DNA of 64,000 bases from Coriobacteriia bacterium (GTDB lineage: Bacteria; Actinomycetota; Coriobacteriia; Anaerosomatales; PHET01): positions 11,733 through 75,732 of the forward strand of contig DASRYH010000019.1 in NCBI GenBank assembly GCA_035687245.1, read 5' to 3'. Of the stretch, positions 1-30,699 are shown piece after piece. The translations under genes were made by a program, and so were the position numbers. A model generated the notes under the pieces. That model had not been told where the DNA came from. It worked only from the letters and a program-made list of their open reading frames with translations, and did not search any database. The stretch's first letter is position 1; each line of letters begins with the position of its first letter.

Positions 1-658
1 GGTAGATGGCGTCGAAGACGTCGGGCGCCTCGATTCCCAGAACGCCCGTGCTCGAGCTGCGGCCACACCACTCCGACGGCTGGCCGAAGAGCATGCGCAT
101 GTAGTCGATCTCGTGTGAGAGGTCCAATCCCACGCCGCCACCACGCCCTGAGGCGCTGTATGAGGCCTCGTGAGGCCTGTTGGGCCGCCAATCCGGCAAC
201 CACTGCCCGACTTCGATCCGGGCGAACAGAGGCGTCCCCAGAGCGCCGTCGCGCATAGCACCCTCGATCTCGCGCATGACGCCTAGGAGGCGCAGGTTGT
301 AGGCGACGCGCGCTACGACCCCGCGCGCGCGAACCGCGAGACACAGCGAAACGACGTCGGAGTCGAGCTCGACGGCTATTGGCTTCTCGACGAGCAGGTG
401 AGTGCCGGCCTCCACGAGCTGCGCGGCAGTGCCCACGTGCAGGTCGCTGTTGTTGGCGATGACCGCGAAGGGCGCCGCGTCTGCCGGCAACTCGGGCACG
501 ACGCTCACACGCGTATCGGCGAAGGCCTCGACGTCGCCCACATCACGCTTGGTGACTACCTCGACGGTGCCTACGCCCAAGGCGAGCAGGTTGCGGACGT
601 GGCGCTGGGCGATAGAGCCGCTGCCGACGACGAGTGCGCGGTCGGGTACCACGCTCAT
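1..658 (-). CDS. Gfo/Idh/MocA-family NAD(P)-dependent oxidoreductase (partial; C-terminus runs off the left edge)
   Basis: Absent from the ORF track because it is open at the window edge. My translation from the ATG at 658-656 gives MSVVPDRALVVGSGSIAQRHVRNLL... (Rossmann GxGxxA) and later ...AGTHLLVEKPIAVELDS (the EKP family hallmark). Start overlaps the upstream SDR stop (ATGA). Confidence 0.75.
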   Translation of the reverse strand, partial: MSVVPDRALVVGSGSIAQRHVRNLLALGVGTVEVVTKRDVGDVEAFADTRVSVVPELPADAAPFAVIANNSDLHVGTAAQLVEAGTHLLVEKPIAVELDSDVVSLCLAVRARGVVARVAYNLRLLGVMREIEGAMRDGALGTPLFARIEVGQWLPDWRPNRPHEASYSASGRGGGVGLDLSHEIDYMRMLFGQPSEWCGRSSSTGVLGIEAPDVFDAIY

Positions 659-1416
659 CGGGCCGTCCAGCCGCCGTCGATGACGAGGTTGTGGCCAGTG
701 ACGAAGGACGCGGCGTCGGAGGCGAGAAAGACGGTGCCGCCGACCATGTCTTGGGGCCGTCCCATTCGGCGAAGCGGAGTGAGCTCTGAGTAGCGCTTCA
801 CGAACGACTCGGCCTGCGCGTCCTCCACGCCGCCGGGGGAGAGACAGTTGCAGCGCACGCCTGCGGGGCCGTAGTAGGTGGCGAACAGGCGGGTGAGGTT
901 GATGATGCCGCCCTTGATGGCGGCGTATGCGCTGGGCATCGTCATCGAGGTGCCGTCGTAGACCTCGTAGCTGGGTCCGACGATCCCATAGATCGAGGCG
1001 ATGTTGATGACCGAACCGCTGCCGGCCTTCGCCATGCGCTCGGCTGCCTCACGCGAGGTGAGGAAGTAGCCGCCGAGGTGCATGTCGAGGTTCTCGGTCC
1101 ACGACCCGAACGACTCGGTGGCGAGCGGAGCGCCCCAGTCGGAGGTGCGTGGGTAGGCGGAGTTCACGAGGATGTCGAGGCTTCCGCTCGTCTCGATGAC
1201 GCGATCGAGAGCGGCGGCGACGGACTCCTCAGAGGTGATGTCGATCTGGAGATAGCGGGCGTCGTCGGGGCTTTCGGCGATGTCGGCCGCCCACACATCG
1301 GCGCCGGCAGCGCGCAGCCCTGCGCAGATCTCGCGGCCCAGAAGTCCCAGGCCGCCGGTGACGACTGCCGTCTTGCCAGCGCAGGAGAAAAGCCCGTCGT
1401 AGGACGCGTCAGTCAT
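655..1416 (-). CDS. short-chain dehydrogenase/reductase (SDR)
   Basis: ORF 655..1500 trimmed to the ATG at 1416 (MTDASYDGLFSCAGKTAVVTGGLGLLG). Shows the TGxxxGxG cofactor motif, NSAYPR, and catalytic YAAIKGG (YxxxK). The upstream part of the ORF looks non-coding. Confidence 0.85.
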   Translation of the reverse strand: MTDASYDGLFSCAGKTAVVTGGLGLLGREICAGLRAAGADVWAADIAESPDDARYLQIDITSEESVAAALDRVIETSGSLDILVNSAYPRTSDWGAPLATESFGSWTENLDMHLGGYFLTSREAAERMAKAGSGSVINIASIYGIVGPSYEVYDGTSMTMPSAYAAIKGGIINLTRLFATYYGPAGVRCNCLSPGGVEDAQAESFVKRYSELTPLRRMGRPQDMVGGTVFLASDAASFVTGHNLVIDGGWTAR

Positions 1417-1516
1417 GTGAGCCCCTCGTGACAGCCCGTCCGCGTGACGGGTCGCGAAAAAGTATACCAAGCACCAGCGGCCGTACTTGCTGCGACGCAA
1501 GACGTGCGGTCGTCGC

Positions 1517-3202
1517 CTAGTACTCGGGAATCTGCGGCGGCACTTGGTAGTCCACGAGCGGCTGTCCGGGCTTCCACGAGTAGGGCAGCGAGGTCAGCTT
1601 GATGCTGTGGGCGAGTTCCTTGCGAAGGCGTGCCCGGTCCGTCCAGTCCAGGAGCATGTAGCGCACCACGGTCTTGGAGGACGTGAGGTCGGGCTTTCCT
1701 TCGGCGATGGTCACCACGATGTCGGGGGAGTGGAGGGTCCAGTCCTTGAGGTTGTAGTACTGGTTGTGGTCGAGCGCCCTGAACCCGGTCGGGAAGGTGT
1801 CCGGGATGTACTTGAAGTGCGCGCGCTCGATGCCCCAGCGGCTCTGGTCGCCGAAGACCTGGGCCATCATGCCGCTGTACTCGTAGTGCTGCCGTCCGGA
1901 CCGGTGGCCGGCGTTCCAGTCTTCGGTACGGTCCACGAACAGGATTGTGTGCGCCGCTTTGATCTGCGGGTTGACCCGGAAGGCCTCCATCATCGCCTGC
2001 TCTTTGAGCCACTCGCGCTCGTAGCCTATGTAGCTCTGGAGATGTACGGCGGTGAAGTAGCCCATCGTGAAGGCGAGCGCGACGCTGATCAGAACCCGCC
2101 CGTACTTCCAGCGGCCCCGGGCGTGACCCTGTGCGATCGCGACGATGATCGCGCCCCAGCCGATAGGTGTGAGCAGCTGGTGACGGCTCTCGAAGCCGGA
2201 GAACATCGGGATCTTGCCCACCGCTGCGTACGGAGCTACCGCTAGCAGCACCAGAAGCAGGCCCGAGTCCAGCAGCCAGATGTCGGATGCGTTGTGCTCG
2301 AGACTCCAGCGCCGCCACGCCCACAGGCTGAGCGGCACCATCACGATGCAGGCCGCTACCAGCGCCAATCGTTCCGGTGTTACCTGGGTCCACACGATTG
2401 AGATGGGGTTCGAGTGCACGATGCCCGACCACAGGACGTCGGAGAGCTGCGTGTCTTGAGAGAGAAACTGGTTGTAGTCGGCGTAGAGTCCCCGCGGCTG
2501 GAACCAGAGCTTCGTCATGACGAAGAAGAGAAACGGCATGACCAGCTCGCCCGTGTAGGCGAGCAGCCGCTTGATGACGTCGAGCAGCTTCCACGACGCC
2601 GGCGGGTCTGCCATGAGGAAGACGATCGGCATGAAGCCCGAAAGCACGAGAAGTGAGCGCGTGTGGTAGGAGAGGAAGAGCAGCACGACTGCTGCGACGT
2701 GTACCCACCACTTCGGCTTGGGTGAGAAGCGGACGTTGAGCCAGATAGCGCCGAGGAAGAACATCAGGCACAGGCTGTAGGCGGTCATCACGAGCGCTTC
2801 TCGCGAGGTGAAGCCGGGGTAGACGGCGAAGAGCGCCGCGATCCAGAAGGCGGTCGAATCCGTCATCTTCGGCAGGCGCCGTACGATGCCGAAAAGCAGC
2901 AGGGTCGCCACGAGCAGGCCGGCAAACGAAAGCAGTCTGCCGAACGTGATGCCGAACTGGCTGTAGAAGATCCAGTGGTTGATGTTGGTGGGCCAGACCG
3001 AGCCCATGTCGCGGCTGACTTCGGCGACGAGCTGCTTGTCCTGCTGCCAGAAGACCCAGTCGTCCCAGAACAGGCCGCGGTCGAGCAGCCCGAGGGAGTG
3101 GGTGAGGAAGTAGATTAGCGTCAGGAAGGCGTGCGGCGCCCACGCAGCGATACTGCGCGGGTTGCTCTGACTTGTTGCCTCAGGTACCGGCTGGGACGCC
3201 AA
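1517..3202 (-). CDS. polytopic membrane protein, putative GT-C-fold glycosyltransferase (paralog of 6219..7814)
   Basis: 561 aa with many hydrophobic helices and an acidic first-loop motif GLFWDDW. Shares PRGLYADYN, PYAAVGKIP, SRHQLLTP and YEREWLKEQ with the 6219..7814 protein. Has a hydrophilic C-terminal domain of about 170 aa. The competing 576-aa ORF 1413..3143 is R/P/A-rich junk. Confidence 0.7.
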   Translation of the reverse strand: MASQPVPEATSQSNPRSIAAWAPHAFLTLIYFLTHSLGLLDRGLFWDDWVFWQQDKQLVAEVSRDMGSVWPTNINHWIFYSQFGITFGRLLSFAGLLVATLLLFGIVRRLPKMTDSTAFWIAALFAVYPGFTSREALVMTAYSLCLMFFLGAIWLNVRFSPKPKWWVHVAAVVLLFLSYHTRSLLVLSGFMPIVFLMADPPASWKLLDVIKRLLAYTGELVMPFLFFVMTKLWFQPRGLYADYNQFLSQDTQLSDVLWSGIVHSNPISIVWTQVTPERLALVAACIVMVPLSLWAWRRWSLEHNASDIWLLDSGLLLVLLAVAPYAAVGKIPMFSGFESRHQLLTPIGWGAIIVAIAQGHARGRWKYGRVLISVALAFTMGYFTAVHLQSYIGYEREWLKEQAMMEAFRVNPQIKAAHTILFVDRTEDWNAGHRSGRQHYEYSGMMAQVFGDQSRWGIERAHFKYIPDTFPTGFRALDHNQYYNLKDWTLHSPDIVVTIAEGKPDLTSSKTVVRYMLLDWTDRARLRKELAHSIKLTSLPYSWKPGQPLVDYQVPPQIPEY

Positions 3203-3312
3203 AGCGCCGACTCCTCATCTGGTTCGCGACATCTCGTGACCGCAGACATCGTAGGCGAAACGCCGGGCTCGCGCGCGCGACGTCACCCGATTGATGCATT
3301 CGGTGCGAAGCC

Positions 3313-3867
3313 CTAGGACGCGGGACTACTCGCGGCTTCCTCGTCCGGGTCATCGGGGAGAATCGCGACCTCTGCGGCCGCCTTGAGCGGCCGGAACGTG
3401 AAGTACTTGTGCCCGACGTAGCTGAAGATGACCTGGACGGCGGTGGTGGCGATTGCGCCGATCTGCGGGATCAGTCCCACGACCTGCACGAAGAACCACA
3501 GAAGGCCGGTGCCTATCCACTGCGAGGGAAGGTAGACGAAGTACGCCTTACCGACCTCATGCAGCGCGTTGCCTTTGCTCTTGAAGACGAGGTACTTCAT
3601 GGTCAGCGTGCTCTGGGGCACGGCGGCAATCCAGCCGATCCAGCCGCATACCAGGTAGTAGTTGTCGCCCAACCAGTAGATCCAGCCGGTGTCAGAGGTC
3701 TTGAGGGTCTGGACAGTGGGCCCGACGAGCTTGAGCAGTAGAAGGAAGAGGGCGTAGCTGAACGTGGTGTTCCACACACCCACGACCAGATAGCGCAGCT
3801 TCTCTTGGTGCGTCTCAGCCAGCGCCTTGAGGCGCGTGACGAGCGATGGTTTCTCGGTCACGTCCAT
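3313..3867 (-). CDS. GtrA-family small membrane protein (putative polyprenyl-phosphate-sugar translocase)
   Basis: ORF 3313..4086 trimmed to the ATG at 3867 (MDVTEKPSLV...). KLRYLVVGVWNTTFSYALFLLLLKL is a typical GtrA-like N-terminus. About 4 TM helices, 184 aa. Confidence 0.8.
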   Translation of the reverse strand: MDVTEKPSLVTRLKALAETHQEKLRYLVVGVWNTTFSYALFLLLLKLVGPTVQTLKTSDTGWIYWLGDNYYLVCGWIGWIAAVPQSTLTMKYLVFKSKGNALHEVGKAYFVYLPSQWIGTGLLWFFVQVVGLIPQIGAIATTAVQVIFSYVGHKYFTFRPLKAAAEVAILPDDPDEEAASSPAS

Positions 3868-4088
3868 GTTTGTGCGGAATCCTCCGGGACGGGTTCGGGT
3901 GTGCGCCGAAGGCGAGCTGCCGTTTGCCTGAATCGCGCGCGCTGACACACTACCAGAGTGGGCTTGTGGGCGGCGACGACGGGCGGCTGACGTAGACATT
4001 AGTGGTAGACTGCCCGAGGTCCCGCTCGAAGTGCGCTTTGGGCGCGAAGGACCGCTGTCGCACTGAGGGAAACGAGGAAGCGGCACCC

Positions 4089-5030
4089 ATGGCGAAGAAG
4101 CTCATCAGTATCGTCACGCCCTGCTACAACGAAGAAGGCAACGTCATCCCGCTCTACGAGCGAGTGAAGGCGGTCTTCGACCAGCTGCCGGACTACGACT
4201 TCGAGTACATCTTCGCCGACAACGCCTCCACCGACGGCACCGAGCGTGAGCTGCGCCAGATCGCGGCCGCCGACAAGCGCGTGAAGGTCATCTTCAACAT
4301 GCGCAACTTCGGCCACATCCGCTCGCCGTACAACGCGCTCATGCAGGCCAAGGGCGACGCCGTTGTCGCCATGGTCGCCGACTTGCAGGACCCGCCAGAG
4401 ATGATTACGGAGTTCCTCGCCAAGTGGGAGGAAGGCTACCCGATCGTGCTCGGACAGAAGGTAGGCAGCGAGGAGTCGTGGCTGCTCTACATGCTGCGCA
4501 CGATCTACTACAAGATGGTGCGGCGCTTCGCCGACGTGGAGCTGCTCGAGCACGTGACCGGCTTCGGCGTATACGACCGCGTGGTCATGGAGCAGCTTCG
4601 CGCTCTGAACGACCCGTACCCCTACGTGCGTGGACTCATCTCCGAGTTCGGCTACCCCGTGGCGCGCATCCCCTACGAGCAGAAGAAGCGCGCCGTCGGC
4701 GTCACGAAGAACAACTTCTACACGCTCTACGACATGGCGATGCTGGGCTTCACGAGCCACTCTAAGGTGCCGTTGCGTCTCGCTGCGATGCTGGGCTTTG
4801 CCAGTGCGACAATGAGTCTGGTCGCGGGCGTGGCGTTTCTCGTCTACAAGCTGATGAACTGGACCGAGGTCTCCTTCGGCACCGCGCCCCTGGCGATCGG
4901 CCTGTTCTTCCTCTCGTCAGTGCAGCTGCTGTTCCTCGGAATCGTTGGCGAGTACGTGGGCGCGATCCACACGCAGATTCAGCAGCGCCCGCTCGTGGTC
5001 GAGCGCGAGCGTCTCAACTTCGACGAGTAG
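4089..5030 (+). CDS. GT2 polyprenyl-phosphate glycosyltransferase (GtrB/ArnC/DPM1-like)
   Basis: ORF 4002..5030 trimmed to the ATG at 4089, with a GAGGAAG RBS upstream. ISIVTPCYNEEGNV, FADNASTDGT and VAMVADLQDPPEMI (the DxD-region signature of this subfamily) are present, plus two C-terminal TM helices. Confidence 0.9.
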   Translation: MAKKLISIVTPCYNEEGNVIPLYERVKAVFDQLPDYDFEYIFADNASTDGTERELRQIAAADKRVKVIFNMRNFGHIRSPYNALMQAKGDAVVAMVADLQDPPEMITEFLAKWEEGYPIVLGQKVGSEESWLLYMLRTIYYKMVRRFADVELLEHVTGFGVYDRVVMEQLRALNDPYPYVRGLISEFGYPVARIPYEQKKRAVGVTKNNFYTLYDMAMLGFTSHSKVPLRLAAMLGFASATMSLVAGVAFLVYKLMNWTEVSFGTAPLAIGLFFLSSVQLLFLGIVGEYVGAIHTQIQQRPLVVERERLNFDE

Positions 5031-5064
5031 GCCGACGAGGACGGGCGGGGGGCCAGGCTCGGTC

Positions 5065-6222
5065 ATGGGCAAGCTTGCCGACGTGCAGAAGCTGCGCGCA
5101 TTCGCGGTGTTCATGGTGCTCTTCGGCCATTTGCCCTTCACCATGCCCAACATCCTCATCCACGGCTACACCGGCGTTAGCCTCTTCTTCGTGATCTCGG
5201 GCTACGTGGTGACGCTGAGCATCCTTCGCAAGCCACCTGCAGGCAGGTTCTTCGACCGGCGCAACGTCGCGTGGCTGCGCGACTTCTACCTCCGCCGCAT
5301 CTTCCGCCTGCTCCCCGTCGCTGTGATCTGGGTGCTGATCTACTTCTGCATCGGGCAGTTCATCTCGGCCTTTGGCGGTAGCTACGGCGACATGAGCCGT
5401 TGGGCGAACGAGATCAAGTGGTTCGGGCTCGGCATCTACAACTACGGATACGCCGCGTCTCACATGCCCGGTCTGTTCGGACACTACTGGTCGCTCGCGG
5501 TGGAGACGCACTTCTACTTGATACTGCCGATACTCCTGCTCGTGCTGAGCAAACGGAGCTACCGGATCGGCATGTGCGTGCTCGCCATACTGCTTGTGTC
5601 GACGTGGCTGCGCATGATCACGCCGAGCGAGTCGATCGGTCTGCTGACCCACACGCAGGCCGACGCGCTCTTCTCGGGCGTGCTGATGGCGCTTGTCTTC
5701 TCGGGCGGCGACGATCCGTTCTCGCAGCTATTCGGCAAGCTGGAAGAGCGCCTCCCACAGCTGGTCAAGAACGCCGTGTCGCTCTCGCTGCTGGGGGCGC
5801 TGTTCGTGCTGCCGTCGTGGATGGACACGCGCGTTGAACCGATCCTCAAGTATCCGGTCTTCACCGCGCTCGCGGTCGTGATCGTCTTTCTCGCGCAGCG
5901 CGAGGCCGGGTGGATCGCCGGCGGTTCGAGAGCGGTGGATACGGCCTTGCTCTACGTTGGCGACCGTTCGTATTCGCTCTACGTGTCCCACGTGATCCTG
6001 TACTCAGGGGTCTACGTCTTCGTGACCGCCAAGTACGCCGCGGCGATGCCGACATGGATCACCCAGACTGCATCAGGAGTGGCTGCCCAGGCTGCCTTCT
6101 TGGTCCTTGCCGCGGTGGCGGTCGCCGCGTTCTCGTACCGCTACATCGAGCAGCCCTACATCGACTTCGGCAAGAAGGTCATCCGAGGGCTCGACGAGCG
6201 CTCAGCTCAGGCGGCCGCCTAG
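5065..6222 (+). CDS. acyltransferase family 3 (integral-membrane O-acyltransferase)
   Basis: ORF 4945..6222 trimmed to the ATG at 5065 (MGKLADVQKLRAFAVFMVLFGHLP). Has the AT3-type N-terminal R..A...V...H motif, about 10 TM helices, and HYWSLAVETHFYL. Confidence 0.85.
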   Translation: MGKLADVQKLRAFAVFMVLFGHLPFTMPNILIHGYTGVSLFFVISGYVVTLSILRKPPAGRFFDRRNVAWLRDFYLRRIFRLLPVAVIWVLIYFCIGQFISAFGGSYGDMSRWANEIKWFGLGIYNYGYAASHMPGLFGHYWSLAVETHFYLILPILLLVLSKRSYRIGMCVLAILLVSTWLRMITPSESIGLLTHTQADALFSGVLMALVFSGGDDPFSQLFGKLEERLPQLVKNAVSLSLLGALFVLPSWMDTRVEPILKYPVFTALAVVIVFLAQREAGWIAGGSRAVDTALLYVGDRSYSLYVSHVILYSGVYVFVTAKYAAAMPTWITQTASGVAAQAAFLVLAAVAVAAFSYRYIEQPYIDFGKKVIRGLDERSAQAAA

Positions 6223-7814
6223 TTCCCGCTCTCGTCAACGGGCATCGGCATGCTCTGGTAGGCGAGCACGCTGGGCACGATCCGCTCGAACTTGTCGTGC
6301 GCGAAGACCTCACGCGCAAGCAGCCCGAGTACCGCGCGGTCGCTATCCAGGCTCTTCGTTCCCGGATCGAGGATGAGCTGGTAGCGGTCGATCGGCTGGT
6401 GCCAACCGGTCCAGTGATACTGCTCGTAGGGGAGGAAGCGGGGAAGCTGCGCAGCGTAGCGCGGCGAGAGCGTCTCGTCGACAAGGAATCGCGTGGGTTC
6501 GCCGAAGACGGTGTAGGCCATGGCCGAAAACTCGTACGGGAGTATTCGGCGGCGATTCACCATCAACGAGGTGGTGTTGTCGCGGATGACGAAGAGGTTG
6601 CCGCGGCGCACGTTCGCGTCGGACGCCATGTGGCGCATGAGCGAGACCTGCTTGTACCAGTCACGCTGGTAGTCGATGCAGGTCGTGATGTCTGCCGCGA
6701 CGAACGCGATGAGGAAGCCGAAGAGTACCAGCACGAGGCTTCGCTGCTTGAGCCGGAGGAGCGTGCCGGCCAGCAGTACGATCGAGCACACAATGAGCGC
6801 CGCCGCGAGGGGAACCAGCAGCTGGTGACGGCTGTCCCACCATTCGGGGCCCGATGTCTGCGGGACTTTGCCCACCGCAAGGTAGGGAAAGACGGCGAGC
6901 ACGAAGCTGAGCACACCTAGCGCGAACAGGGCGATCGGCTCCCGCACGTCGCGATCGAGCCGCTTGCCCGTCCGGCGTGCGGCAAGGGCCACGATGAGTG
7001 CGACGAGCACCGCCGCGGCTACAGCGGGCCATGCCACCACGAGCGGCTGCAGCAGGGACTGCCACGTCGACGTCCACCAGTGGGAAAGGCCTTCAGCCAC
7101 CGCCTCGGCTGTGATCTCGTTGTAGCCGGCGTAGAGCCCCGACGGAGCCAGCCACTTGAGCTGGATGAACCACGAAGCGAACGGCAGAACGGCGAAGCCG
7201 GCGTAGCGGGCGAAAACCCCCGTGCGAGACCGACCGTCTCTGAGCTCGGCGCGCGTCTGCCATAGCAGGTAGATCCCGACCAACGCGAAGAACATCAGCA
7301 GTGACTTCGTGGTGAGCATCGCGAAGACGAAGAGCGCAGCCGACACGATTCGGCGAGGTAGGCGAGGGTTCTCGAGGTCTTGTGCGAGCAGGAGCCATGC
7401 ATAGTAGAAGACGGCCACTGACACGGTGTACTGCAAGTCGATGTGCGCGATTCGCGCGGCGTTGACCGGGAACACGGCGAAGACGAGCGGGACCATCCAC
7501 TGCACGACCGGCGAGAGTTCCGCGACGCGCCGAAGGATGCGGTTAAGGAACAGCGCGCTTGCGAGGAACAGCACGAAAGTCAGTGCGTGGCCGAGGTACC
7601 ATCCGCCGCGCATGTTGCCCAGCGCGACCCAGTACACGGGCTGCCAGAACTGCCCGTTCATCGCGCCCCAAGAGACAGCGCCCTTCCACGAAAGCCCCGT
7701 CAGGCACCAGTCATCCCAGTACAGCCCGCCGTTGAAGAGCATGAGCGCCCAGGCCGCAGAGTAGACGCAGGTGATAGCCAGCGTCTGGCCGTCGAACTTA
7801 CGAGCGCTCGTCAT
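6219..7814 (-). CDS. polytopic membrane protein, putative GT-C-fold glycosyltransferase (paralog of 1517..3202)
   Basis: ORF 6219..7922 trimmed to the ATG at 7814 (MTSARKFDGQTLAITCVY...). Carries GLYWDDW, PSGLYAGYN, PYLAVGKVP, SRHQLLVP and YQRDWYKQ, collinear with the 1517..3202 protein. The start lies 17 nt inside the rmlB 3' end. Confidence 0.7.
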   Translation of the reverse strand: MTSARKFDGQTLAITCVYSAAWALMLFNGGLYWDDWCLTGLSWKGAVSWGAMNGQFWQPVYWVALGNMRGGWYLGHALTFVLFLASALFLNRILRRVAELSPVVQWMVPLVFAVFPVNAARIAHIDLQYTVSVAVFYYAWLLLAQDLENPRLPRRIVSAALFVFAMLTTKSLLMFFALVGIYLLWQTRAELRDGRSRTGVFARYAGFAVLPFASWFIQLKWLAPSGLYAGYNEITAEAVAEGLSHWWTSTWQSLLQPLVVAWPAVAAAVLVALIVALAARRTGKRLDRDVREPIALFALGVLSFVLAVFPYLAVGKVPQTSGPEWWDSRHQLLVPLAAALIVCSIVLLAGTLLRLKQRSLVLVLFGFLIAFVAADITTCIDYQRDWYKQVSLMRHMASDANVRRGNLFVIRDNTTSLMVNRRRILPYEFSAMAYTVFGEPTRFLVDETLSPRYAAQLPRFLPYEQYHWTGWHQPIDRYQLILDPGTKSLDSDRAVLGLLAREVFAHDKFERIVPSVLAYQSMPMPVDESGN

Positions 7815-10938: not shown

Positions 10939-10939
10939 G

Positions 10940-23130: not shown

Positions 23131-23302
23131 CCGGACACCCCCTGGGAGCGCTTCGCTACGACAGATGGCGAGCAGGCAAAATAGCCCCCCGCCGAATTGA
23201 CTCGTGGGAACCCGCAAAGTATATCAGGCAATAGCGGCCAGAGGCGGGGAGGCGGAGTGCGTTACGAAGCCGTCACGGGCCGAATGGCACGCCCGTTGTG
23301 GA

Positions 23303-24466: not shown

Positions 24467-25467
24467 AGCTCGATCATCTCATCGGGGGCGAAGGCGCGTG
24501 GGGCCTGCTGGCCTATGACGGAGTCCCACAGCATCGGGCTCAGCCCCGTACCCGGCCTCTTGGTGGTGAGGTTGGCCTCGGTGAACGTCTCGCCTTTGGC
24601 GATTCCGGCGGCCGCAACGATGCTCTTGCGCACGAGCGGCATGTTGCGCGACTCAGTGGGCGTGGGCACCTTGTGGCCGTCGCCGAGAGCGACCGAGACG
24701 TTTCTTACCGCTGTGACCAGCGAGGCGAGCTCATCGGGCTCGACGCTCGCGGCGTGGTCGGGGCCGGGTAGCGAGCGGTCGAGCGTGAAGTGCTTCTCGA
24801 CCACCGTCGCGCCCAGTGCGGCCGCAGCGACCGATACTTCGATGCCACGCGTGTGGTCGGAGTAGCCGATCTCGATGCCGAAGCGATCGCGGATCTCCGC
24901 CATCGCAAGCAGGTTCACTTCGTCGAAGGGCGTGGGGTACTCGGTGGTGCAGTGCAAGACCGTGATTCGGGATCGCTCCAGCCCGGCGGCTTCGAGGGCC
25001 TCGATGGCCGCGGCGATCTCGTCCAGCGTCGCCATGCCCGTAGAAAGCAAGACGCTCTCGGCGCACGCAGCGATCTCTCGCAGCATCGGCAGGTTCGTGA
25101 TCTCGCCCGAGGCGATTTTGAACTCGCGGGCGCCGAGCGAGGCGAGCAGGCGCACGCTGGGGATGTCAAAGGGCGAGGAGAGGAAGGCGATTCCGCGGTC
25201 GGCACACGCTGCGAGCAGGCGCTCATGCGAGGGTGCATCGAGCTGCAGCGCCCTGAGCATCTCGAGCTGGGAGCCGTCACCTGTCTGGGTCTTCTGGTAG
25301 TCGGCCTTCTGCGCGGCAGGTGAGACGAGCGCCTCAGGCACGAAGCTTTGGAACTTGATCGCGTCTGCGCCCGCGTCAGCGGCCGCGTCAACCATCGCAA
25401 GCGCGCGGTCAGGCGAACCGTTGTGGTTCACGCCGGCTTCGGCAATGACACGAACCCGCGACATCAT
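24463..25467 (-). CDS. neuB: nonulosonic acid synthase (NeuB/LegI family)
   Basis: ORF 24463..25932 trimmed to the ATG at 25467 (MMSRVRVIAEAGVNHNGSPDRALAMVDAAADAGADAIKFQSF). Also GYSDHT and a C-terminal SAF-like domain. ATGA overlap with the upstream gene. 334 aa. Confidence 0.9.
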   Translation of the reverse strand: MMSRVRVIAEAGVNHNGSPDRALAMVDAAADAGADAIKFQSFVPEALVSPAAQKADYQKTQTGDGSQLEMLRALQLDAPSHERLLAACADRGIAFLSSPFDIPSVRLLASLGAREFKIASGEITNLPMLREIAACAESVLLSTGMATLDEIAAAIEALEAAGLERSRITVLHCTTEYPTPFDEVNLLAMAEIRDRFGIEIGYSDHTRGIEVSVAAAALGATVVEKHFTLDRSLPGPDHAASVEPDELASLVTAVRNVSVALGDGHKVPTPTESRNMPLVRKSIVAAAGIAKGETFTEANLTTKRPGTGLSPMLWDSVIGQQAPRAFAPDEMIEL

Positions 25468-26102
25468 TCGCCTGCCTTGGGGCGGCAGGGATTGCCGAAG
25501 GCGATGGTGCCCGCGTCGATGTCGTCGACAACGACGCTTCCCACGCCGATGACCGCACCAGTGCCTATGCGAGCGCCTTGGATGACCGATGCGCCGGTTC
25601 CCACATGTGCGTCGTCGCCGACGATCACATCCCCGCTCAATGTCGCGCTCGGGGCGATATGCGCAAAGGCGCCGACCATGCAGTCGTGGTCGATCACGGC
25701 GCCGGAGTTGACGATGGCGAAGTCGCCGACTGTGACACCTGGACCCACGACAGCTCCGGCGCCGATGAAGACGCCCGTGCCGAGGGTGGCGTTCGGCGAG
25801 ACATACGCGGTGCGATGCACGACCGTCTCGAAGTGGAAGCTCATCGCACTCGCGCGCTCGACTGCCGCGCGGCGGGCGGTCGTATCGCCGACCGATCCGA
25901 TGCCGAGTACAGCGCGGTAGGTGCCCTCGCAAAACAGGCGCTCGAGGTCGGCGTCGGAACCGATGACCGGGAGGCCGCCCACGGTCTGACCAGGCGTCTG
26001 CTCGCGATCGATCGCTCCGGAAGGCTCGATTCCGGCAGAACGCAGTGCGTCGATGACGCTGTTCGCGTGTCCGCCGGCTCCGATAACGATAAGTCCGCTC
26101 AT
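25464..26102 (-). CDS. hexapeptide-repeat sugar N/O-acetyltransferase (NeuD/LegH/PglD-like)
   Basis: ORF 25464..26378 trimmed to the ATG at 26102 (MSGLIVIGAGGHANSVIDAL...). N-terminal Rossmann-like domain plus a left-handed beta-helix (GVFIGAGAVVGPGVTVGDFAIVNSGAVIDHD). 212 aa. Confidence 0.8.
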   Translation of the reverse strand: MSGLIVIGAGGHANSVIDALRSAGIEPSGAIDREQTPGQTVGGLPVIGSDADLERLFCEGTYRAVLGIGSVGDTTARRAAVERASAMSFHFETVVHRTAYVSPNATLGTGVFIGAGAVVGPGVTVGDFAIVNSGAVIDHDCMVGAFAHIAPSATLSGDVIVGDDAHVGTGASVIQGARIGTGAVIGVGSVVVDDIDAGTIAFGNPCRPKAGE

Positions 26103-26110
26103 CGTCGTGG

Positions 26111-27175
26111 CTACCTGATCCCGAGGCGATCGAGCGTGTCTTGAAGCTCCTCGATCTGCCCGATGTCGAGCCAGGAACGCTCCGCGATGGGGTAGACGCC
26201 CACGTTGCGCCCGGCCGCCTTGGTCATCTCGATGAGGTCGGTCGCATCGGTGAAGGTGTCGTCCTTGATCAGATCGAGGACATCGGACTCCATGACATAG
26301 ACGCCGGTGGAGACGAGCATGTCGAAACGCGGCTTCTCGCGGAGATTCTCGAGCATTCCGCCCTCGCCGACGTCGCACACGCCGTAAGGCAGAACGACCG
26401 ACTGCATCGACGCGATGATCGTGATCGCGTTGTTGTGGCTGCGGTGATAGTCGATCGCGCAGGAGTACTCCGTGTCGATAATGGTGTCGCAGTTGGCGAG
26501 GATGAAGGTGCCATCGATGTCGCGCGCCATGAGCTTGAGACTGCCGGCGGTCCCGAGAGGCTTGTCCTCGTCGTAGAAGCGCAGGCCGTAGTCGAGTCGA
26601 ACGTCACTGAAGTAGGCGCGAATCAGGCTCGACTTGTGGTTGAGAGAGACCAGGAAGTCGCTCACGCCCTGCTCGTGGAAGCGATCCATGATGAGCTGCA
26701 GAATCGGGATGTCGCCAACGGGCATGAGGGGCTTGGGGAGGATGCGCGTGAACGGCTGCAGCCTCGTGCCCTTTCCGCCTGCCATGATCGCGACCGGAAC
26801 GTCGATCGTAGTGTGAAACCCGCGTGGCTTGCCGAAGACGTCGTTCCAGCGAATCGCATCGATCAGCCGGCCGTCATCGTCGAGCACGGGAATCGCCTCG
26901 AGCTGACGGTCGAGGAAGATCTCGCGCACGTGCTCTTCGGAGAAGCCCTTGCGCACCACCACGGGCTCGTCGTTCATTGCCATCGATACCGGGTCGCTTA
27001 GTTGGCGACCTGCGAGGATGTGCCGACGGATGTCGCCGTCGGTGAGCACGCCAAGGAGGATCTCGCCGGCGCTGGCCACGAACAGGATGCCTCCGGTCCC
27101 GTGGTTCAACGTCTCGAGAGCCTCGATGACAGAGATGTTCGGTGTGACGATTGCGTTCTTGATGCGGTCGGTCAT
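26111..27175 (-). CDS. CBS-domain-containing sugar-phosphate nucleotidyltransferase (PtmE-like)
   Basis: ORF 26111..27229 trimmed to the ATG at 27175. N-terminal CBS pair (GVLTDGDIRRHIL), then the NTP-transferase motif VAIMAGGKGTRLQPFTRILPKPLMPV. Confidence 0.8.
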   Translation of the reverse strand: MTDRIKNAIVTPNISVIEALETLNHGTGGILFVASAGEILLGVLTDGDIRRHILAGRQLSDPVSMAMNDEPVVVRKGFSEEHVREIFLDRQLEAIPVLDDDGRLIDAIRWNDVFGKPRGFHTTIDVPVAIMAGGKGTRLQPFTRILPKPLMPVGDIPILQLIMDRFHEQGVSDFLVSLNHKSSLIRAYFSDVRLDYGLRFYDEDKPLGTAGSLKLMARDIDGTFILANCDTIIDTEYSCAIDYHRSHNNAITIIASMQSVVLPYGVCDVGEGGMLENLREKPRFDMLVSTGVYVMESDVLDLIKDDTFTDATDLIEMTKAAGRNVGVYPIAERSWLDIGQIEELQDTLDRLGIR

Positions 27176-27182
27176 TCGGCCT

Positions 27183-28361
27183 CTAGCCTCTCGCAAGCGA
27201 CCTGATCGTCGAAACGACGCGGTCGACATCGGCTTCGGTCAAGTCGCTACTGCATGGCACGTTCAGAATACGCTCCCAGAACCAGACTGCACGCTCAGGG
27301 CTGACCACGCGACAACCAGCGTAGGGAGCGTTCATGTGCACGGGCAGCCAAAGCGGCCTGCTCTGGATCTTCGCTTCCGAAAGGGCCTGCATCAGCGCCT
27401 CGCGGTCCATCCCAAACTCATCGGCGTCCACCAGCAGCGTGAAGAACCAGGAGTTGGAGAAGGTTCCTTCGGGTGCCTGCATGACAGTGATGCCCGGCAC
27501 GTCGGCGAGTCCCTCGGTGTAGCGCGCCCGGTTGCGGCGCTTGGTCTCGATGAAGCTTTCGATCTGCTCCATCTGCGCGACGCCGATGGCGGCCGACACG
27601 TTGGTGAGCGCGTAGTTGAAGCCTACCGTGCCATGCACGTAGCGGACCGGATCGTCCTTGGCCTGGCCGACGAGGTAGCGCGCGCGCTTCGCGAACTCCT
27701 CGTCGTCGGTGACGATCATGCCGCCACCGCCGGTGGTGATGAGCTTGTTGCCGTTGAAGGAGAACGCGCCGGCCATGCCCAGCGTGCCCGTGTAGCGGCC
27801 AGCCAGCGGACCTTGTGTGTAGTAGGAGCCGAGGCTTTCGGTAGCGTCCTCGATGACTGCCAGCCCGAAGCGTTCGGCAATCTCGAGAACGCGCACCATG
27901 TCGCACGGATCGCCGAAGATGTGCACCGGCATTATCGCCTTCACGCGAAGGCCAGTGACGTCGTCAACGAGTTCGCCGCCGGTGTCGATACTGTCCAGAT
28001 ACGCCTCGAGCGCGTCGGCATCCAGCCCCAGGTGCTCGTCACATCCAACAAGGATGGGCTGCGCGCCCGTGTAGTGGACCGCGTTTGCCGAAGCGATGAA
28101 GGTTGCCGTCGGCACGATCACCGCGTCACCGGCGCCCACGCCGGCAATCGACAGTGCCACGTGCAGCGCAGCGGTGCCGGTAGTGGTGGCGACGGCGAAT
28201 CGCGCTCCGGTCAGCGCCCTGACGGCGTCTTCAAAGCGGGTGACATAGGCGCCCGCGCCGGAGAGCCAACCGGTGTTGAGGCAGTCCTCGGTGTAGGCCC
28301 ACTCGTTGCCCCGCACCACCGGGACGGACAGCGGCAGAAACTCGTGCGCGCCATCAGACAT
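27183..28361 (-). CDS. DegT/DnrJ/EryC1-family PLP-dependent sugar aminotransferase (LegC-like)
   Basis: ORF 27183..28610 trimmed to the ATG at 28361 (MSDGAHEFLPLSVPVVRGNEWAYTEDCL). FSFNGNKLITTGGGGM contains the PLP lysine, in contrast to the His in ddhC. 392 aa. Confidence 0.85.
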   Translation of the reverse strand: MSDGAHEFLPLSVPVVRGNEWAYTEDCLNTGWLSGAGAYVTRFEDAVRALTGARFAVATTTGTAALHVALSIAGVGAGDAVIVPTATFIASANAVHYTGAQPILVGCDEHLGLDADALEAYLDSIDTGGELVDDVTGLRVKAIMPVHIFGDPCDMVRVLEIAERFGLAVIEDATESLGSYYTQGPLAGRYTGTLGMAGAFSFNGNKLITTGGGGMIVTDDEEFAKRARYLVGQAKDDPVRYVHGTVGFNYALTNVSAAIGVAQMEQIESFIETKRRNRARYTEGLADVPGITVMQAPEGTFSNSWFFTLLVDADEFGMDREALMQALSEAKIQSRPLWLPVHMNAPYAGCRVVSPERAVWFWERILNVPCSSDLTEADVDRVVSTIRSLARG

Positions 28362-29352
28362 TGTAGATATCCCAACGGTAGCGGCTGAGGTTGGCCGGGT
28401 CGCTGAACCACTCGATGGTCTCGGCGAGGCCTTCTTCGAGTGTGTACTTCGGCGCCCAGTCGGTGAGCGACTTGATGAGCGTGGTGTCGGCGAGAAGGCG
28501 CTCGACCTCGCTCTTCTCGGGACGCAGGCGCTCGTCGGAGGAGATGATCTCAGTGCCAGGGCGCACCATATCGATGAGCAGCTGGGCCAGCTCGCCGACG
28601 GTGATCTCACGGCCGGAGCCGATGTTGACGTCGCGACCGATCGCCTCGTCGCACTCGGTGAGCGCGATCATGCCGGCCACGGTGTCCTTGGCGAAGTTCA
28701 GGTCACGGGTGGGGTGCAGCGACCCGAGCTTGATCTGCTCGGCACCGCCACACAGCTGCGTGATGATCGTGGGGATGACGGCACGCGCGGACTGGCGCGG
28801 GCCGTAGGTGTTGAACGGTCGAACCGTCACGACCGGCAGGTCGAAGGAGCGGTAGTAGGACTCGGCCATCTTGTCGGCGCCGATCTTGGAGGCAGAGTAC
28901 GGCGACTGCCCCTGTAGCGGGTGCTTCTCGTCGATGGGAGCGTACTGAGCCGTGCCGTAGACCTCTGAGGTGCTGGTGACGGCGACGCGCTCGAGCTCGA
29001 AGTCGCGCGCAGCCTGCAGCACGTTGAGCGTGCCGCGGATGTTGGTGTCGACGTAGGAGTCGGGCGCGAAGTACGAGTAGGGGATGGCGATGAGGGCCGC
29101 CAGATGCATGCAGACGTCGGCGTCCTCGAGCGACTTGCGGACGAACACGGCGTCGCGCACGTCGCCCATCACGACCTCTATGGAGTTCTGGATCTCTGCG
29201 GGCAGCGTATCGAGCCAGCCGCGGGAGCCGAACGAGTTGTAGTAGGTGAAGGCGCGCACGTCGGCACCATGCTCAACGAGGGCTTCTACCAGATGGCTAC
29301 CGATGAAGCCGTCGGATCCGGTGACGACGACCTTCTTGCCGCGCAACTGCAT
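28354..29352 (-). CDS. NAD-dependent sugar 4,6-dehydratase (LegB-like, SDR extended family)
   Basis: MQLRGKKVVVTGSDGFIGSHLVEALVEHGADVRAF.YYNSFGSRGWL and YSASKIGAD (YxxxK). AGGAG RBS upstream. Confidence 0.8.
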   Translation of the reverse strand: MQLRGKKVVVTGSDGFIGSHLVEALVEHGADVRAFTYYNSFGSRGWLDTLPAEIQNSIEVVMGDVRDAVFVRKSLEDADVCMHLAALIAIPYSYFAPDSYVDTNIRGTLNVLQAARDFELERVAVTSTSEVYGTAQYAPIDEKHPLQGQSPYSASKIGADKMAESYYRSFDLPVVTVRPFNTYGPRQSARAVIPTIITQLCGGAEQIKLGSLHPTRDLNFAKDTVAGMIALTECDEAIGRDVNIGSGREITVGELAQLLIDMVRPGTEIISSDERLRPEKSEVERLLADTTLIKSLTDWAPKYTLEEGLAETIEWFSDPANLSRYRWDIYNV

Positions 29353-29445
29353 ATCGAGTGGCTCCTGTCACTTCGTTTTCAAGTTCGATGGTTCGGGTCG
29401 TAATTGTAACGCTAGGCAAGGGCCCGGCCGTCACGTGCGCGGGCG

Positions 29446-30699
29446 CTAGGCTTTGCCCAACGCACCGTTCTGCACGCCCGCGGCGGCAAATCGCTGGTAG
29501 ACGATCGCGCAGACGATAGCCACCAGAAGCGCCGGGTACAGGAACGACGACGTGCTCACGGTCGAGATGAGCAGCACGTAGTCGAGTGGCACCAGAAGCA
29601 GGCCGAAGAGCAGCGCATATCCGAAGTCCCACTTGTCGAGTTCGGCTTCGGCGAACAAGGCGATCGGGATCAGCAGGTGCACGAGCGTGTAGTCGTGCGA
29701 CTCGAACGGCAGAAGCAGCATGGCCGCGAACAGCAGCGTGAACCGCTTCCAGTCGGTGCGCTCGAAACGGATGACGTAGGCGCTGAGCACCACGAAGCTC
29801 ACGAGCGCGAAGACGACGTAAGCCGTGCGCATCGGATCAGACGGGAAGGCGCCGGTCACGAGCCGGTACGCGACCGTCACCACGCCCCACAGGCTGTGGC
29901 CGTGCTGGTGCGCGCCAAGCGTGTCTGCGTACCCGACGTGGCCGACGAAGAGCGACTCGTACCAGTGCTGTAGCAGCTGAGGCACGCTGAAACCAGAGAC
30001 CACGGAGAGCGCGAGCGTAGCGAGCGCCTCAAAGCCGATGGCCGCTGCGATCGCGATGCCGAGCTCCTTCCACTTGCGGTCGGCGATGAACAGCACGATG
30101 AAGACGCCGGGGTACATCTTGTAGGCGATTGCTGCACCAAGCGCGACGGCCGCCAACGACGAGCGCTTCTTCAGGAAGAGATAGGTGAACGCCGCGAGCA
30201 GCATGAAGAGGAAGATCTCCTCGTTGCCGCGGTCGACCGTGAAGAGCACCGGGTACGACATCGTGGCGATGGCGGTCGTGACGAGCAGCCCTACAACTGT
30301 CGCTCGCCCTCTCATCTCGGTTGCCACGTGATCCCAGAGAATCGCGATGACCACGACCGAGAAGCTCAAGAGCGCGAGCCCAAATGCGATCTTCTGCACG
30401 GGGATCAGCGAGAACAGGCCCATCAGCGACGTACCGAACGGTGAGTAGGGCATGTCCATGCTGTGCCCGCGGAGCAGCAGCGACGCGCGGTCGAGATCGC
30501 CGTAGAAGTCGTCGAAGCGCCTTCCAGGCTTGAACAGGAAGGTGTTGAGCGGGTACGGGTACTTGCGGTAGATGCCAAGCACGTAGTGGAAGACCGACGA
30601 CAGCCAGGTTCCGGCCACGACGGTGAGCGTTATGAGAAGAGCGCGCCGGTTCTTCGGATGGCTGAGATCCAGCGTCGTCGAAGGACTCTGGGTGGGCAC
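29446..30699 (-). CDS. polytopic membrane protein, GT87/DUF2029-like putative GT-C glycosyltransferase
   Basis: 417 aa, about 11 TM helices. First-loop region RRFDDFYGDLDRASLLLRGHSMDMPYSPFG, then AIAYKMYPGVFIVLFIADRKWK, which resembles the GT87 K..P...RxW segment. Confidence 0.65.
   Translation of the reverse strand: MPTQSPSTTLDLSHPKNRRALLITLTVVAGTWLSSVFHYVLGIYRKYPYPLNTFLFKPGRRFDDFYGDLDRASLLLRGHSMDMPYSPFGTSLMGLFSLIPVQKIAFGLALLSFSVVVIAILWDHVATEMRGRATVVGLLVTTAIATMSYPVLFTVDRGNEEIFLFMLLAAFTYLFLKKRSSLAAVALGAAIAYKMYPGVFIVLFIADRKWKELGIAIAAAIGFEALATLALSVVSGFSVPQLLQHWYESLFVGHVGYADTLGAHQHGHSLWGVVTVAYRLVTGAFPSDPMRTAYVVFALVSFVVLSAYVIRFERTDWKRFTLLFAAMLLLPFESHDYTLVHLLIPIALFAEAELDKWDFGYALLFGLLLVPLDYVLLISTVSTSSFLYPALLVAIVCAIVYQRFAAAGVQNGALGKA

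Follow-up and report, generated by a model that had tools for sequence, protein, structure and literature searches.

How rare sugars could reach a cell-envelope glycan when the genes that make them lie among large membrane proteins and none of the usual polymer-assembly machinery is the question raised by the first 30,699 nucleotides of the window analyzed here (the whole 64-kb stretch; contig DASRYH010000019.1, positions 11,733 to 75,732), which derives from an uncultured Coriobacteriia bacterium of freshwater sediment. Our answer, to which we assign a probability of roughly 0.6, is that this 31-kb region is the right-hand part of a cell-envelope glycan locus and encodes an expanded, multi-component extracytoplasmic glycosylation system fed by rare-sugar routes within the locus. 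The system probably decorates a polymer, or proteins, made elsewhere. Extracytoplasmic glycosylation diversifies O-antigens, teichoic acids and rhamnose polysaccharides; its known donors are few, and the glycosyltransferases of fold type C (GT-C) that use them are hard to spot by sequence.

Genes were called by G+C content at third codon positions (GC3) and identified with Pfam and with NCBIfam at its curated cut-offs. The region holds 26 densely packed genes, all plausibly glycan-related, with no space for additional open reading frames between them; an earlier note, made from the DNA alone, had read every gene here as glycan-related, and the new call returned the same content at near-identical coordinates. 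Five transcription units span the region. Unit A (minus strand) comprises GtrA, the membrane protein M1, a short-chain dehydrogenase/reductase (SDR) and a Gfo/Idh/MocA oxidoreductase; unit B (plus) the family 2 glycosyltransferase GT2a and the acyltransferase AT3a; unit C (minus) GT2b, an SDR, RmlA-long, RmlB and M2, which abut or overlap on one strand; and unit D (plus) M3 and M4. Unit E (minus, 14.7 kb) begins with the GT87-family protein M5 and runs through LegB, LegC, a PtmE-like and a LegH-like enzyme, NeuB, NeuC/LegG, a cytidylyltransferase, CDP-glucose 4,6-dehydratase, E1/RfbH, an SDR and a thiamine diphosphate (ThDP) enzyme to AT3b, its last gene. The GtrA and M1 genes are divergent from GT2a and AT3a. 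Homologous loci on public contigs are referred to below by our own numbers (L001, L002 and so on).

The loading of sugars onto lipid, their presumed flipping and the acylation of the product are represented by five genes:

4089-5030, plus: GT2a, GtrB/ArnC-type polyprenyl-phosphate glycosyltransferase (GtrB 5EKP, E 7e-48; ArnC, E 2e-27)
10940-11923, minus: GT2b, GtrB/ArnC-type polyprenyl-phosphate glycosyltransferase, first in the dTDP-sugar operon (GtrB 5EKP, E 5e-85; ArnC, E 3e-40)
3313-3867, minus: GtrA-family small membrane protein, presumed polyprenyl-phosphate-sugar flippase (GtrA_DPMS_TM, 43.4 bits against a cut-off of 26.1)
5065-6222, plus: AT3a, membrane O-acyltransferase (Acyl_transf_3, E 7.5e-21)
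15954-16994, minus: AT3b, membrane O-acyltransferase, last in the long minus-strand operon (Acyl_transf_3, E 1.7e-25)

Strong homology argues that both GT2s are genuine polyprenyl-phosphate glycosyltransferases. GT2b aligns to the crystal structure of GtrB from Synechocystis (5EKP) over residues 11-317 of 327 and GT2a over residues 6-304 of 313; their Glycos_transf_2 Pfam matches have E values of 9e-26 and 8e-33, and the catalytic domain of each also matches archaeal dolichol-phosphate mannose synthase. The relatives of GT2a (75-81% identity) adjoin genes of the M1/M2 family. The GtrA product (184 residues, with hydrophobic segments, also called on L001) covers positions 1-117 of the 117 in its profile and is kept beside M1 homologs in L002 and L014, the same two loci whose AT3 genes are 52-53% identical to AT3a. 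Two GtrB/ArnC-like GT2s, one GtrA and two AT3s were also the earlier note's count, which these full-length alignments and domain matches bear out.

The top NCBIfam match of both GT2s is PgfS (GT2b 291 bits, GT2a 186 bits), which bears on the alternative that the GT2/GT-C cassettes modify Ser/Thr-rich secreted or membrane proteins, as in Streptococcus mutans Pgf and actinobacterial Ppm1/Pmt. The order GT2, epimerase, GT-C parallels the pgf operon (PMC5856776, PMC12041528), M1 weakly matches PMT_2, and polymer-backbone genes are not seen in the window. Both PgfS scores, however, lie far under the equivalog cut-off of 500; the locus encodes no candidate acceptor protein; in relatives the cassettes sit within polysaccharide-type loci that also encode Wzx, an ABC exporter and GT4 glycosyltransferases; and AT3s combined with several rare-sugar routes are found more typically with polysaccharide antigens. 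Protein O-glycosylation is thus an unlikely account of the locus as a whole.

Transfer outside the membrane would fall to five large membrane proteins, all of which are supported as GT-C enzymes, M1 and M4 by predicted fold, M2 and M3 by paralogy, and M5 by its Pfam match:

1517-3202, minus: M1, membrane glycosyltransferase with a predicted GT-C fold, from an unnamed family and paired with GT2a and GtrA (AlphaFold pTM 0.83; GT-C matches in the PDB)
6219-7814, minus: M2, GT-C paralog of M1, last in the GT2b/dTDP-sugar operon (25% identity to M1)
12162-14045, plus: M3, predicted GT-C fold, tandem paralog of M4 (42% identity to M4; product P0011, 627 residues)
14050-15948, plus: M4, predicted GT-C-fold membrane glycosyltransferase of a large unnamed family (AlphaFold pLDDT 90, pTM 0.90)
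29446-30699, minus: M5, GT87-family GT-C glycosyltransferase, first in the 14.7-kb minus-strand operon (Pfam GT87, 70.7 bits against a cut-off of 25)

AlphaFold models of M1 (mean confidence, pLDDT, 78; predicted template-modeling score, pTM, 0.83) and M4 were generated from their family alignments and compared with the PDB using Foldseek. The best 8 matches of M1 are STT3, AglB, ALG12, ArnT and DPY19 (probability 0.96-1.0, template-modeling (TM) score 0.33-0.40), followed by AftD and Pmt1, and the best 11 of M4 are ArnT, AftA, AglB, STT3 and AftB (probability 0.95-1.0, TM score 0.29-0.41), followed by PglB. No transporter, MurJ or RodA rose above probability 0.25 in these searches, WaaL and Wzy were absent from the results, and no SEDS or flippase fold appeared. 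M2 is 25% identical to M1 across 470 residues (E 1e-27) and scores 629 bits against the M1-family hidden Markov model (HMM), whereas M3 is 42% identical to M4 across 619 residues and scores 810 bits against the HMM of its own family; profile-profile comparison detected no relationship between M1/M2 and M3/M4. In M5, the GT87 assignment is accompanied by a weak PIG-M match (solved PIG-M structures, E 3e-4).

By sequence, the two families are nearly invisible. When profiles of named GT-C families (GT39/PMT, GT83/ArnT, GT87, GtrII, YfhO, DUF6311 and others) were run, only M5 passed threshold, with GT87. Pfam hits of the M1/M2 family are sub-threshold and scattered, but all to GT-C families (PMT_2 at 18.6 bits against a cut-off of 26.1, GtrII in 2/10 members, GT87 in 1/10); the M3/M4 family gave no Pfam match in 11 close and 42 diverse members, and neither family found anything significant among solved structures, even with profiles of 10, 11 and 42 sequences. 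The earlier note had ascribed an acidic first-loop motif typical of GT-C enzymes to all five proteins. For M1 and M2 this holds: the N-terminus of M1 is textbook GT-C, with a first transmembrane helix, a loop carrying D47-D48 and two short amphipathic helices, and in the family alignment D47-D48 is invariant in M1/M2, six residues past that helix. M5 has a comparable acidic motif near residues 62-71, judged by inspection. The conserved acids of M4 (D128, D134, E275 and D391/H394) are on the predicted outer face, and in both M3 and M4 the acids D128 and D134 come after the third helix, so that they may be in loop 2 or, alternatively, the first two helices may be an N-terminal addition.

Because Wzy and WaaL are notoriously divergent and often unannotated, and Pfam recognizes neither M3 nor M4, some of these proteins might have been Wzy, WaaL, SEDS, MurJ or Wzx-like, making this an ordinary Wzx/Wzy locus with divergent parts. 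The high-probability Foldseek matches of M1 and M4 are all GT-C, with MurJ and RodA at noise, below probability 0.1; M1 carries the GT-C signature loop; and several genomes couple these genes to GtrB-type synthases and GtrA. A Wzy, ligase or flippase identity was rejected on the fold matches, and we consider such a locus highly improbable; the earlier note's assignment of the membrane proteins to GT-C, rather than to Wzy, ligase or transporter families, stands.

The breadth of the M3/M4 family was first misjudged. A word-indexed homology search returned 9 members for M1 and 12 for M3/M4; a second such search, with the M1 profile as query, brought in no further members and overlooked known paralogs. 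On that basis, the M3/M4 family would have been extremely rare (12 proteins). An exhaustive HMM search of 1.84 billion cluster representatives overturned this view, with 1,238 clusters at E <= 1e-3 (50% identity clusters, and a lower bound) and 623 at E <= 1e-30, nearly all of whose members are full-length at 580-660 residues. A word-indexed search alone is therefore an unreliable gauge of rarity for divergent membrane proteins, and M3 and M4 belong to a sizeable, unnamed family of predicted GT-C fold that has no Pfam or NCBIfam model. One member (P0049; L018 533-3541) is a natural fusion of an N-terminal AT3 domain with a C-terminal M3/M4-type GT-C domain, with a second AT3 gene next to it, suggesting a common substrate for acylation and this GT-C family.

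Members of both families also appear in other settings. In L008 (4309-8990; also L009 and L010) an M3/M4-family gene lies between rseP (Peptidase_M50) and dxr, a conserved isoprenoid/undecaprenyl-phosphate neighborhood, and in L008 it is adjoined by a GT87 gene and an unannotated 615-residue membrane protein. In L016 (322-3254), the end of an E1-like DegT gene and an M1/M2-family gene overlap, and the contig also encodes a radical-SAM protein, a methyltransferase and a GT2; this contig has 42% G+C, so the M1/M2 family is not limited to high-GC Actinomycetota. In L014, which otherwise lacks the M3/M4 family, a 253-residue product (3009-3815, minus) scores 157 bits against its profile and is probably the remnant of an M3/M4-type gene. 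Further membrane proteins of 597-660 residues in related loci match neither new family nor Pfam, apart from one weak precomputed DUF6311 hit, and may represent additional unrecognized GT-C families:

L005: 2371-4281, 10787-12655 and 18245-20885
L002: 12267-14060
L008: 9100-10947

The neighborhoods of homologs were compared by tblastn. Across several independent metagenomic loci the genes keep their order, with identities of 41-83%, and the cluster is therefore not a chance grouping. L015, a contig from a sediment or soil metagenome, reproduces the core of the window at 73-83% identity in the order GT2a, M2 fragment, RmlB, RmlA, SDR, GT2b, one M4-type gene, ThDP enzyme, SDR, E1, CDP-dehydratase, cytidylyltransferase, LegG, NeuB, PtmE and LegC. 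Its M2 homolog is split (433 + 97 residues; 1123-2698) and its RmlB product has just 189 residues (3150-3719), as would be expected of either pseudogenes or assembly errors. L002 (from the Coriobacteriia metagenome-assembled genome GCA_030652115.1) and L014 carry the ThDP enzyme, two AT3s, a methyltransferase, GT2b, SDR, an M2-type gene, GT2a, an M1-type gene, GtrA and a 600-residue membrane protein, with a Wzx-type flippase (Polysacc_synt), an aminotransferase, an acetyltransferase, ManC and a GT4 immediately next. In L005, one strand carries contiguous genes for E1, the ThDP enzyme, a GtrB-like GT2 and GtrA, accompanied by an M4-type gene and four other unannotated membrane proteins of 610-660 residues. 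L004 and L011, found through homologs of the leftmost gene of the window (52-54% identity) in genome and metagenome collections, hold Leg genes, an SDR and a Gfo gene, then a 735-759-residue protein, a plain GT2, two GT4s, an ABC exporter and ManC; the C-terminal half of the 735-759-residue protein matches Capsule_synth (25.8 bits; cut-off 20), and its matches to TagF-like GT-B families and TIGR04396 do not reach their cut-offs. In L004, a GT2 and an M2-type gene form a pair directly upstream of LegB.

Two cassettes are conserved across these loci: GT2b + SDR + (RmlA, RmlB) + M2, and GT2a + GtrA + M1. In L002, L014 and L015 they return with identities of 41-81%. In addition, the CDP/ThDP branched-sugar route accompanies GtrB-type synthases in at least four independent loci. 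Synteny cuts both ways for the system envisaged in the earlier note: the cassettes recur, but the same modules stand beside Wzx and a GT4 in L002 and L014, and beside a GT-B-like protein, GT4s and an ABC exporter in L004 and L011, and the relatives thus join them to ordinary Leloir and export machinery.

The sugars offered to the synthases can be read from three biosynthetic routes (dTDP, CDP with a ThDP enzyme, and legionaminic acid type), as the earlier note had proposed; eleven sugar-pathway enzymes clear NCBIfam curated cut-offs, whereas none of the SDRs does, nor does the PtmE-like or the ThDP enzyme. The dTDP route is encoded between GT2b and M2:

7798-8844, minus: RmlB, dTDP-glucose 4,6-dehydratase (TIGR01181, 442 bits against a cut-off of 365)
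8841-9908, minus: RmlA-long, glucose-1-phosphate thymidylyltransferase, long form (TIGR01208, 462 bits against a cut-off of 320)
9979-10938, minus: SDR, NAD-dependent epimerase/reductase, adjoining GT2b (Epimerase Pfam, E 4e-42)

The start of RmlA-long at 9908 has a Shine-Dalgarno sequence and gives a product of 355 residues, in agreement with that of L015. The SDR has no NCBIfam equivalog above cut-off, is 61-67% identical and syntenic in L002, L014 and L015, and always lies beside GT2b; it could either reduce the 4-keto group of the dTDP sugar or epimerize the lipid-linked sugar. Neither RmlC nor RmlD is present in this route and, by analogy with the established Rml pathway, RmlA, RmlB and the adjacent SDR should yield a 6-deoxyhexose other than L-rhamnose.

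The CDP route occupies the downstream part of unit E:

22360-23130, minus: glucose-1-phosphate cytidylyltransferase, DdhA equivalent (TIGR02623, 421 bits against a cut-off of 300)
21239-22366, minus: CDP-glucose 4,6-dehydratase, DdhB equivalent (TIGR02622, 479 bits against a cut-off of 278)
19858-21213, minus: CDP-6-deoxy-4-hexulose 3-dehydrase (E1, RfbH), DdhC equivalent (NF011936, 692 bits against a cut-off of 423)
18798-19865, minus: SDR, candidate YerF-like reductase (Epimerase Pfam, E 8e-33)
16987-18795, minus: YerE-like ThDP-dependent sugar C-branching lyase (three TPP_enzyme domains)

The closest solved relative of the ThDP enzyme is 8RPH (JanthE; 348 bits), a characterized YerE-like enzyme (PMC12188165), whereas acetolactate synthases reach at most 246 bits (<=246) and all acetolactate synthase equivalogs score far below cut-off, so that identity was rejected. 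In the scheme for yersiniose, YerE attaches a pyruvate-derived acetyl branch to CDP-3,6-dideoxy-4-keto-glucose and YerF reduces the branch (PMC9306805, PMC12247030). The SDR between E1 and the ThDP enzyme keeps this position in L015, at 66% identity.

The legionaminic acid (Leg)-type route fills the upstream part of unit E, and its probable auxiliary pair lies at the far left of the window:

28354-29352, minus: LegB-type NAD-dependent 4,6-dehydratase (TIGR04180, 485 bits against a cut-off of 475)
27183-28361, minus: LegC-family aminotransferase (TIGR04181, 426 bits against a cut-off of 420)
26111-27175, minus: PtmE-like CBS-domain nucleotidyltransferase (CBS and NTP_transferase Pfam)
25464-26102, minus: LegH-like, NeuD/PglD-type N-acetyltransferase (TIGR03570, 211 bits against a cut-off of 161)
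24463-25500, minus: nonulosonate synthase, NeuB/LegI type, start codon approximate (TIGR03569, 458 bits against a cut-off of 400; NeuB and SAF Pfam)
23303-24466, minus: NeuC/LegG-type hydrolyzing NDP-sugar 2-epimerase (TIGR03568, 389 bits against a cut-off of 236)
655-1416, minus: PtmA-like short-chain dehydrogenase, overlapping the start of the Gfo gene (adh_short_C2, E 1e-39)
1-654, minus: Gfo/Idh/MocA oxidoreductase, N-terminal two-thirds (six-frame reading)

Judged by these family matches, the route appears complete as far as the free nonulosonate. The PtmE-like enzyme is 75% identical to a gene of L015 and 57% to one of L004, both inside Leg clusters. The PtmA-like SDR (PRK09186 222 bits, PtmA 146 bits, both below the NCBIfam cut-off) has an exact 253-residue counterpart on L001 and shares 64% identity with the SDR located after LegG in L004; the full Gfo/Idh/MocA gene (319 residues, with GFO_IDH_MocA Pfam hits) is on L001, and its relatives follow Leg genes in L004 and L011. 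A role of this pair in the nonulosonate route is more likely than one as a DprE1/DprE2-like epimerase for a lipid-linked sugar, since the pair directly follows the Leg genes in L004 and L011. Pfam and NCBIfam scans found no CMP-nonulosonate synthetase (CTP_transf_3-type) anywhere in the 64-kb window, and the window offers no candidate nonulosonate transferase, whether Maf-type or sialyltransferase-like.

Nor do the same scans reveal a GT-B glycosyltransferase, Wzx, Wzy, ABC exporter, chain-length regulator or priming transferase in 1-30.7 kb, and the rest of the window likewise lacks an initiating phosphoglycosyltransferase, Leloir glycosyltransferases, Wzx/Wzy and an ABC exporter. Within the window, then, the absences listed in the earlier note hold. 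Right of 30.7 kb the genes are housekeeping (ilvE-like, leuA-like, FAA hydrolase, a major facilitator superfamily transporter, dnaE, and the his and trp operons). On the left, the locus is open: position 1 of the window falls within the Gfo/Idh/MocA gene, and the single public contig with identical sequence (L001, 7.4 kb) stops 458 bases past this edge. The gene that it reveals there (L001 7241-7390) is convergent and readable for 49 residues, with a C-terminus resembling tetratricopeptide repeats (TPR; ...LGQARLANGDKAGAVEALEQAAKYAPGDAEIAAQLAAAKAAK); it may mark the boundary of the locus or be the end of a TPR-bearing membrane glycosyltransferase. No tRNA genes or signs of mobile elements were found at the borders of the locus, and base composition is uniform across the window at 65% G+C.

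These absences invite the bolder interpretation that the entire glycan, with its rare sugars, is built outside the membrane from polyprenyl-phosphate monosaccharides by the five GT-Cs, after the manner of mycobacterial arabinan and mannan, with no Leloir elongation, Wzx/Wzy or ABC export. Besides the missing GT-B, Wzx, Wzy, ABC exporter and priming genes, the housekeeping genes on the right and the convergent TPR-tailed neighbor that may be a boundary on the left, the second, 21-kb locus L005 has only GtrB-like GT2s, GtrA, the CDP/ThDP route and five large unannotated membrane proteins; moreover, five GT-Cs for two synthases resembles the mycobacterial pattern, in which one lipid donor serves many GT-Cs. 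The locus is, however, cut at position 1, and a Leg route that lacks a CMP-synthetase means that essential genes are certainly encoded elsewhere. We know of no lipid-monophosphate nonulosonate donor, even mycobacterial arabinogalactan requires a cytoplasmic primer and Leloir steps, and in the closest relatives Wzx, an ABC exporter, GT4s and a GT-B-like protein adjoin the same modules. Autonomous assembly by GT-Cs is therefore improbable; as a system that dispenses with Leloir enzymes, flippase and priming, it was the earlier note's reading and is not supported by the evidence, and for a CMP-type sugar it is unlikely.

The reading that we prefer, an extracytoplasmic glycosylation system that acts on a product made elsewhere, combines the gene identities, GtrB homology, GT-C folds and cassette synteny described above into a proposal for donors, donor-transferase pairings, acceptor and the place where the missing functions are encoded. 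Three routes, each encoded in an operon, would make in the cytoplasm a dTDP-6-deoxyhexose, a CDP-3,6-dideoxy-4-C-branched hexose (yersiniose-like) and a legionaminic-acid-type nonulosonate. GT2a and GT2b would each move one sugar from its nucleotide donor to polyprenyl phosphate, and from operon context we infer that these donors are dTDP- and CDP-sugars. The wiring of GT2b into the dTDP operon suggests that it takes the dTDP-6-deoxyhexose and most likely makes polyprenyl-phosphate-6-deoxyhexose, with M2, encoded in the same transcript, as its transferase; GT2a, beside GtrA and M1, most likely loads the CDP-derived sugar or another hexose, and its transferase is probably M1, M3 or M4. GtrA would flip the lipid-linked monosaccharides. 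Outside the membrane, the five GT-Cs (M1-M4 and the GT87 protein M5) would pass the sugars to acceptor glycans and the two AT3s would then O-acylate the product. For the nonulosonate, a CMP-synthetase and a soluble transferase would be encoded outside the window, as would the acceptor backbone, priming enzyme and exporter, whether to its left or at another site. A wall polysaccharide, favored by the Wzx/ABC/GT4 context of the relatives, could serve as acceptor, as could Ser/Thr-rich proteins as in Pgf.

Several observations weigh against this proposal. The Foldseek scores are modest (E 3e-4 to 1e-3, TM score 0.29-0.41), and the M1 and M4 models were built from alignments of 10-11 sequences. 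Just two synthases and one GtrA are present for five GT-Cs, and no acceptor, LCP-type ligase or priming enzyme is seen in the window. E1 normally needs an E3 reductase, and E3 (DdhD) was not found in the CDP set by Pfam and NCBIfam scans of the window. Should the TPR-tailed neighbor mark the boundary, there may be no conventional machinery adjacent, and the relatives would be an imperfect guide. Finally, the characterized GtrB-type enzymes use UDP-sugars (PMC11127046), and a text-string literature search, a weak negative, found no precedent for dTDP- or CDP-derived lipid-monophosphate donors (rhamnose, fucose).

On balance, the general mechanism is established by GtrABC, CsbB/GtcA/YfhO and related systems (PMC8035078, PMC11127046), and lipid-linked delivery of the dTDP- and CDP-derived sugars is plausible, whereas that of a CMP-type sugar is unsupported. 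The earlier note's idea that sugars loaded onto lipid phosphate are added outside the membrane accordingly survives in part: two GT2/GT-C cassettes with one GtrA, recurring in relatives, speak for it, but it does not extend to the nonulosonate. More specifically, the GtrB-type synthases might load both the dTDP-6-deoxyhexose and the CDP-ThDP-branched 3,6-dideoxyhexose, with the M1/M2 and M3/M4 families installing both outside the membrane. We offer this only tentatively, as doubtful though possible; in its strongest form, a polymer would be elongated wholly by GT-Cs. If true, lipid-monophosphate donors would extend well beyond UDP/GDP-derived hexoses, aminosugars and pentofuranoses, and two new GT-C families would come with dedicated AT3 acylation. 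The locus makes a concrete case for GtrB-type enzymes that may take dTDP- and CDP-activated deoxy and C-branched sugars, and it gives an entry point to the essentially unknown envelope glycans of Coriobacteriia-like Actinomycetota. Confirmation would widen the glycoengineering toolkit for rare sugars and improve the annotation of 'hypothetical membrane proteins' in glycan loci.

Elsewhere in the window, a T-box leader (Rfam RF00230; 97.8 bits, gathering score 93) was detected at 50802-51074 (plus), directly upstream of trpE (51120-52649). Its position before the anthranilate synthase gene indicates probable tRNA-sensing control of the trp operon in a high-GC organism.

Comparison with known systems places each part of the locus near a characterized counterpart. 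With the Campylobacter-type legionaminic pathway (LegB, C, H, G, I and F; PtmE, PtmA and PtmF) the window shares LegB, LegC, LegH-, LegG- and LegI-type enzymes, the PtmE-like enzyme, the PtmA-like SDR and its Gfo/Idh/MocA partner; unlike that pathway, it has no LegF and no Maf-type or sialyltransferase-like transferase, and its SDR and Gfo genes lie 22 kb from the rest of the set. In Yersinia, yersiniose is incorporated by cytoplasmic Leloir transferases, whereas the only transferases near the CDP route of the window are GtrB-type GT2s. The cytidylyltransferase, CDP-glucose 4,6-dehydratase, E1, YerE-like lyase and adjacent SDR in one operon are otherwise shared with the yersiniose A pathway of Yersinia pseudotuberculosis (DdhA-D, YerE, YerF) and with the erwiniose and caryophyllose pathways (PMC9306805, PMC12247030), although the window differs in having no E3 (DdhD) and its host is Gram-positive-type rather than a bearer of lipopolysaccharide O-antigen.

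For transfer outside the membrane, the side-chain pentofuranose system of Citrobacter youngae O1/O2, which founded family GT136, combines an unusual sugar, a lipid-monophosphate donor, an external GT-C and auxiliary epimerases or reductases (PMC11127046), all as proposed here. The mycobacterial GT-Cs that depend on decaprenyl-phosphate arabinose (DPA) or polyprenyl-phosphate mannose (PPM), namely AftA, AftB, AftD, Emb and PimE, show that one donor can serve several GT-Cs, and AftA and AftB, together with ArnT, are among the best structural matches of M4. In both cases, the donor synthases (UbiA-like, dependent on phosphoribosyl pyrophosphate (PRPP), or Ppm1), the flippase (MATE or SMR) and the sugars are different, whereas the window pairs GtrB-type synthases with dTDP and CDP routes. 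The Pgf system of S. mutans (PgfS, PgfM1, PgfE, PgfM2; PMC5856776, PMC12041528) is likewise built from a GtrB-type GT2, an epimerase and two GT-C membrane proteins; unlike Pgf, the window has GT2s that score below the PgfS cut-off, GT-Cs that are not detectably related to known families, and dedicated rare-sugar pathways.

Close parallels are also the three-component or multi-component transmembrane glycosylation systems GtrA/GtrB/GtrC of Shigella and Salmonella phages, CsbB/GtcA/YfhO and GtlA/GtcA/GtlB of Bacillus and Listeria, and GacI/GacK/GacL (PMC8035078), with which the window shares a GtrB-fold GT2 with C-terminal membrane helices, a GtrA and a polytopic GT-C, and for which the same route, from nucleotide sugar through polyprenyl-phosphate sugar and flipping to transfer outside, is inferred. 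Unlike these systems, the window combines in a single locus five GT-Cs with two synthases and one GtrA. Four of its GT-Cs fall into two families with no Pfam or NCBIfam model, two AT3s are integrated, and the synthase genes are linked to operons for dTDP- and CDP-sugars instead of UDP-Glc, UDP-GlcNAc or UDP-Gal. The new elements of the locus relative to all of these systems are the two unnamed GT-C families and the implied use of dTDP- and CDP-sugars by GtrB-type enzymes.

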